A stretch of 41,145 bases of DNA from a virus (Duplodnaviria > Heunggongvirae > Uroviricota > Caudoviricetes), in IMG/VR virus record IMGVR_UViG_2531839440_000003, positions 1-41,145 of that record; one strand, written 5' to 3'. Each line of letters begins with the position of its first letter. Within the stretch, counting starts at the first letter, position 1. The notes beneath the pieces were generated by a model that was given only the letters and a program-made list of their open reading frames with translations, was not told the DNA's origin and ran no database searches. A program made the position numbers and the translations under genes. Shown piece after piece: positions 20,113-20,259 of the stretch.

Positions 20113-20259
20113 TAATTATTCTCACTTGTAGGGAGGGGCGGGGCAAATCCCTGCAGCCCTGGCTGTCCGGGACCGCCCGCCAACCCTTCCTCGCATCGCC
20201 GCAGGTTCGAAAACTTTTTTTTGGGAATGCGATCAAACGATTGATAGGTAAAATCGATT

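Follow-up and report, generated by a model that had tools for sequence, protein, structure and literature searches.

A predicted cos site of HK97/phiP27 type in the GC-rich gap between the HNH endonuclease and small terminase genes of a prophage

The window analyzed here, a 41,145-nt stretch from a virus of the Caudoviricetes (IMG/VR record IMGVR_UViG_2531839440_000003), carries a packaging and head module in which an HNH endonuclease, a small terminase (TerS), a large terminase (TerL), a 60-aa ORF, a portal, a prohead protease and a major capsid protein are encoded in that order, all as full-length ORFs with complete Pfam domains (Table 1). Between the HNH stop codon and the terS start codon lies a gap of 147 nt (20113–20259), which is the sole sizeable non-coding interval between the HNH and capsid genes: terL overlaps terS, the 60-aa ORF starts 11 nt past TerL and directly adjoins the portal gene, and 13 nt lie between the protease gene and the capsid gene. 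This spacing bears out the first-pass annotation, which had placed a candidate packaging site in the only sizeable intergenic gap of the packaging module. The 51-nt GC-rich string that it quoted is found exactly at 20131–20181; its G+C content of 78.4% (mean for 51-mers across the window 50.3%, sd 7.8) makes it the most GC-rich 51-mer in the 41 kb, with a value unmatched by any other. The HNH-TerS-TerL arrangement named there is likewise recovered, both by Pfam matches and by the homology of TerL to that of HK97.

Table 1. Genes and predicted packaging-site features at the HNH-terS-terL locus
Feature	Coordinates	Strand	Basis or remark
HNH endonuclease gene, 116 aa, packaging-associated nuclease	19762..20112	+	PF01844, E=2.4e-15
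Conserved G-block + CAAATC, GGGAGGGGCGGGGCAAATC	20131..20149	+	column conservation 0.7-1.0 over 154 distinct relatives
Bulk of the variable-sequence, fixed-length spacer	20150..20170	+	column identity 0.4-0.7
Predicted 10-nt cohesive end, CGCCCGCCAA	20174..20183	+	alignment to phiP27, SfI and HK97 ends
		
Predicted small-terminase recognition block, CGCCGCAGGTTCGAAAAC + T8	20197..20222	+	+14 to +39 from the top-strand cut
Small terminase gene, 160 aa, P27 family	20260..20742	+	PF05119, E=1.1e-25
Large terminase gene, 585 aa, ATPase + nuclease domains	20742..22499	+	PF03354, PF20441
Non-phiP27-like cassette (right half of cos, terS, terL)	20182..22481 (right limit approximate)	+	

The proteins flanking the gap differ in how closely they resemble those of characterized phages. 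The HNH protein matches a solved HNH structure (5h0m) over its full length (E=1.5e-13), and its DH...N...H and CxxC...CxxC residues align with those of that structure, both the catalytic and the zinc-binding set being preserved; its protein identity is 98% with phiP27 L34 and 25% with HK97 gp74 (by BLASTP, 34% over 70 aa, E=6e-11). TerL recovers the HK97 TerL structure 6z6d by phmmer (E=1.1e-36, residues 122–559), the only TerL match among solved structures at E<=0.001, and is 38% identical to the phiP27 TerL. TerS is 98% identical to that of phi467 and 57–68% identical to those of Klebsiella, Morganella and CharmingMan phages; its identity to the phiP27 and SfII proteins is 24–26% (phiP27 24%) and to that of HK97 21%. 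Neither BLASTP, nor phmmer against the PDB, nor Pfam found similarity between this TerS and HK97 gp1, which is itself not in PF05119; hence, the HK97 TerS-DNA mechanism would apply here by analogy. A sub-threshold Rfam match to SAM_alpha at 20316–20372, inside terS, scores 24.6 bits against a gathering score of 36 (E=0.0018) and is probably due to chance.

The position of a cohesive end within the gap can be predicted from three relatives. The region 19700–20181 is 96% identical to phiP27 in megablast and blastn searches against phage records, a value that also holds for 20100–20181, and the GenBank misc_feature "cos-site" of phiP27 (CGCCCGCCCC, NC_003356 21806–21815) aligns to 20174–20183. 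In SfI, whose virion ends were sequenced directly by run-off, a 10-nt gap, TGCCCGCCCC, was left between the reads (PMC3636060); the SfI record terminates in ...GGGGAGGGGCGGGTCAAATC-N23-GAC TGCCCGCCCC, the same aligned position. The HK97 record ends in ...GGGGGGGGGATCAAATC-N-GAC CGCCGCCAAA and begins with GTTTGAATTTAACGCTAACCCGATTTTTTT; its last 10 nt, CGCCGCCAAA, again align with 20174–20183, and the base numbering of the HK97 TerS-DNA structure study (T16, C:G at 21, A:T at 24–29; PMC11331095) fits the first base of the record as +1. Overhangs of 10 nt at the 3′ side are described for HK97, where the HNH protein gp74 was found to stimulate cleavage of cos in vitro (PMC9410871, PMC11331095). 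With 3′ overhangs, run-off reads would be expected to leave a gap like the 10-nt one of SfI. GAC directly precedes all four 10-mers (window prophage, phiP27, SfI and HK97), and the window has the core GAC^NGCC(C)GCCNN (^ marking the cut) in homology with an experimentally mapped end. As three independent anchors put the cohesive end right after GAC, we predict nicks at 20173/20174 on the bottom strand and 20183/20184 on the top strand, leaving 3′ overhangs. HK97 and SfI are the only phage records that end at the cos site: no phage record matching the right half of the site is linearized at cos, and no end of the IMG/VR loci, which are prophage pieces or storage chunks, falls there. On the strength of the homology, we regard the GC-rich HNH-terS gap as very probably the cos site of an HK97/phiP27-type E. 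coli prophage. This kind of cos element is already known and is annotated in the nearest relative, phiP27; the version here is a hybrid (see below).

Since terS-proximal sites can in general be pac sites, headful packaging, with the gap holding a pac recognition site only, has to be weighed against this placement. TerL groups with the HK97 TerL and with its counterparts in phiP27 and SfI, both cos phages, and the site itself shows homology to cohesive ends that have been mapped, which together render headful packaging exceedingly improbable.

The cos of lambda is laid out as cosQ-cosN-cosB, and the gap would share with it function and a tripartite logic of upstream element, nick site and downstream terminase-binding sites. 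The lambda cohesive end, GGGCGGCGACCT (PMC12315714), is a 12-nt 5′ overhang and thus differs from the predicted end in polarity and length as well as in orientation to the terminase genes; further, the window has no Nu1/gpA-type terminase, and lambda has no HNH partner. In our own reading, the reverse-complemented lambda end, AGGTCGCCGCCC, resembles GGACCGCCGCC; the nick core at 20171–20183, GGACCGCC(C)GCC, is similar to the reverse complement of the lambda end and so has the opposite orientation to the terminase genes. This resemblance may be a coincidence or reflect shared ancestry of the nuclease target. A lambda-type cos was itself considered and rejected: TerS belongs to PF05119, TerL is HK97-like and a cosN-like core occurs in the opposite orientation only.

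To place the predicted end among its relatives, we gathered loci from IMG/VR by way of the TerS protein and of a DNA pattern and added phage records, obtaining a layout set of 132 sequences (96 distinct over the core) and 154 distinct relatives for column conservation. The layout is constant across the 132 sequences: a G-block, a spacer, the nick core, a pyrimidine-rich linker and a block combining a GC step with an A/T tract. The G-block is found in phiP27, SfI/SfII, F1055, mEp235, Klebsiella and Morganella phages and HK97 (as GGGGGGGGGATCAAATC) at an equal distance from the cut; it is the conserved upstream element of the predicted cos and has a putative role in packaging. No functional description of it was found in the literature searched. 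The spacer, counted from the end of the AAA to GAC, measures 23 nt (20148–20170) in the window and 22 or 23 nt in 129 of the 132 sequences, and its sequence is free to vary. The nick core of the relatives reads [G/T]AC^CGCC(C)GCC, after which two or three bases vary. A composite motif built from the relatives (GGGGNGGG, 25–35 nt, GACCGCC) occurs once in the window, at 20135–20177, and in none of 100 dinucleotide-preserving shuffles, whereas the short core KACYGCCSGCC alone is unremarkable (four matches in the window with one mismatch allowed vs. 4.7 expected). Of 5426 complete E. coli genomes, 932 (about 17%) carry the element, and among the matches listed it always lies between HNH and a P27-family terS.

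One relative departs from this layout. In Escherichia phage CharmingMan (PP925830.1, L093; locus about 480–510), the 17-nt nick core is reverse-complemented (TTAGGCGGCGGTCCTTT) between GCGCC/GGCGC flanks, with a normal G-block and a normal TerS block around it; its close relatives (L111, L112, L134 and L144) have the core in the usual orientation. The CharmingMan core may be a real cut-site inversion or an assembly artefact at the genome ends.

The position of the GC-rich stretch, in a non-coding gap within the late operon and followed by a T8 run (20215–20222), would also suit a transcriptional or RNA element, such as a late-operon terminator, antiterminator target, promoter or small RNA. However, no sigma-70-like promoter or intrinsic-terminator match occurs in 19500–20900; no Rfam family reaches threshold in the gap, where a microRNA model (E=0.68) scores best; the predicted fold has an unexceptional energy (z=-0.75, matched by 49 of 200 shuffles); and the 6-bp inverted repeats GGGCGG/CCGCCC are absent from HK97 and the type-A relatives. 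We therefore consider an RNA or transcriptional element very improbable. Two structural candidates were also discarded, namely pairing of the G-block with the C-rich nick core as a hairpin or cruciform, which would have only those 6-bp, unconserved repeats and the same z of -0.75, and a conserved dyad in the spacer, which is too weak (mean best stem 3.57 vs. 3.09 in shuffles, and just 2 bp in phiP27).

Downstream of the cut, the relatives diverge along with their small terminases. In the relatives, the block has the consensus CGCCGCAGGTT[A/C]GAAAAC followed by T6-8: all relatives with a TerS identity of 57–100% carry CGCCGCAGGTTMGAAAACTTTTT on the downstream side of the nick core, and the CGCCGCAGGTT...T-run block is found in all phages of the phi467 and the Klebsiella/Morganella/CharmingMan TerS groups, a conservation that is partly circular, as the block was partly fixed by the search pattern. 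The TerS block is also seen in loci found via protein alone. Other clades have replacement blocks at this place, T-run-ACCCGCGAAA in phiP27 and SfII and AACCCGATTTTTTT in HK97, and a GC step adjoining an A/T tract is present at roughly +13 to +39 in every TerS clade compared. The TerS site of HK97 has been mapped at +15 to +29, with a specific C:G contact and a requirement for a flexible A-tract (PMC11331095). We accordingly predict that the block at 20197–20222 is a TerS site that changes with the TerS clade and is placed like the HK97 site. The G-block, the left nick context and the homologous TerL and HNH proteins are common to all clades, on which grounds the right block would be assigned to TerS, and the G-block and core to the nuclease components. 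The first-pass annotation is thus supported in placing cos in this gap, by homology to the phiP27, SfI and HK97 ends, with the predicted cut at the right edge of the GC-rich stretch; it named the whole gap and that stretch, and the likely TerS block lies beyond the stretch yet within the interval it reported. Its remark that the HNH protein assists cleavage in HK97-like phages agrees with the stimulation by gp74 cited above.

Set against individual relatives, the site combines shared and replaced parts. The Shigella phages SfI, SfII, SfIV and SfV have HNH, cos and terS in the same order as the window, along with its G-block, spacing and GAC^NGCCCGCC core, but differ in spacer sequence, in how the 10-mer ends at its 3′ side (TGCCCGCCCC, as mapped on virion DNA of SfI) and in the TerS clade with its block. 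HK97 shares a G-run with ATCAAATC, a similar spacer length, GAC^CGCCGCCAAA, a downstream GC step with an A/T tract, a homologous TerL and an HNH partner; in contrast, its flanking DNA is unrelated, its TerS has no detectable similarity and a different Pfam status, and its HNH gene, rather than directly adjoining the site, is about 318 bp away from the record end. With phiP27, the HNH gene, the G-block, the spacer and the first 8 nt of the 10-mer are 96% identical and the remainder of the window mostly 91–95%, whereas the last 2 nt of the 10-mer and everything rightward through the end of terL differ, including the downstream block (ACACCCGCGAAATTAAAAATTT vs. CGCCGCAGGTTCGAAAAC-T8 in the window). 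Further, unlike phiP27, which is a Stx2e phage, the window has no ORF of the size of Stx subunit A from the tRNA genes to the lysis genes. Three tRNA genes (Met-CAT, Arg-TCG and Arg-TCT; 16844–17093) precede the lysis genes, an arrangement shared with Stx phages; downstream, where stx would be located, there is just a 141-aa ORF (17269–17694), so that the prophage appears to be devoid of Shiga toxin genes. Elsewhere, in the early region, a full-length match to the sok antitoxin RNA (RF01794, 120 bits; 11957–12132) points to a hok/sok-type toxin-antitoxin locus.

These likenesses and differences follow a mosaic structure. The window is phiP27-like over 15262–20181 (91%) and 22482–41108 (95%) and phi467-like over 20184–25770 (89%); to judge from these alignments, the terminase genes and their predicted recognition block are exchanged as one cassette from a phi467-like phage. 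The joints of this cassette fall inside the cohesive-end 10-mer on the left and at the terL stop codon on the right, and the hybrid 10-mer keeps the length of both parents (ACCGCCCGCCAACCCTT vs. ACCGCCGCCTGACCCTT). The hybrid type, GGGAC CGCCCGCC[A/T]A CCCTT, occurs in many genomes (L009, L013, L014, L030, L107, L145, L163 and L169). Other relatives have their joints elsewhere in the conserved blocks (e.g., in the spacer in L080 and L083), which indicates that the cos region is a general recombination joint and the present case not a unique event. Just upstream of HNH, a perfect 21-nt tandem duplication (TTGAAATGAGCGGTCAACATG, two copies; 19639–19680) lies in a 42-aa ORF (19572–19700); as similarity to phiP27 does not begin until about 19694, the duplication marks a further piece of the mosaic.

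A hybrid site of this kind raises the question of whether it still works. The joint between a phiP27-type left half and a phi467-type right half with its terminase falls inside the 10-mer, and a recombinant between two cos types may suffer from a mismatch between the halves; moreover, the exact 10-mer is in no virion-derived phage record, all exact or near-exact copies found being prophages in bacterial genomes. The site could therefore be a cos homologue that no longer functions, either as the prophage is defective or as the recombinant site is cut inefficiently. Against this stand the intact packaging and head genes, the presence of the left half-site elements in all clades, phi467 included, and the wide distribution of the hybrid type with further variation around it, as expected of a propagating lineage, which argues for a working site. 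On balance, loss of function appears unlikely and the site is probably active, although activity of the present prophage is where the main residual doubt lies.

Taking the gap as a working cos, we propose the following course of packaging. TerS would bind the block at 20197–20222 on concatemeric DNA, about 14–39 bp to the right of the cut, and would position TerL, which would work with the HNH nuclease encoded just upstream. The duplex would then be nicked at 20173/20174 (bottom) and 20183/20184 (top) to give virion DNA with 10-nt 3′ cohesive ends, 5′-CGCCCGCCAA-3′ on the right end. The G-block at 20131–20149, held at a fixed 22–23-bp spacing on the last-packaged side, would serve as a second contact element, which the HNH/TerL nuclease complex may use or which may act in termination.

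To a specialist, nothing in this site is surprising, and the cassette swap bounded by the cut and the G-block at a fixed distance are modest extras. They tentatively suggest, as a possibility that we hold to be rather less than even, that cos is built of two separately inherited half-sites, the left traveling with the HNH gene and the right with terS-terL. The left half, which is nearly universal, would comprise the G-block, the fixed spacer and GAC^CGCC as the context of the bottom-strand nick; the right half would comprise the final bases of the 10-mer, A^CC as the context of the top-strand nick, and the TerS block. If true, the joint inside the 10-mer would amount to a natural experiment indicating that each nick is specified by a different protein, the left by HNH or a conserved TerL surface and the right by a TerS-positioned TerL, and the G-block would represent a cosQ-like element not described before in the HK97 supergroup. 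For HK97, two models of two-strand nicking have been discussed (PMC11331095). For annotation, the site predicts the genome ends and the exact cohesive-end sequence of a prophage type that matches about 17% of complete E. coli genomes across the site, the relatives of which include the Stx2e phage phiP27 and phi467, the latter linked to Stx2f phages by hits of a literature search. More generally, the conserved layout and the cut-bounded swap give hints as to what TerS reads in an HK97-type cos and what the conserved nuclease components read.
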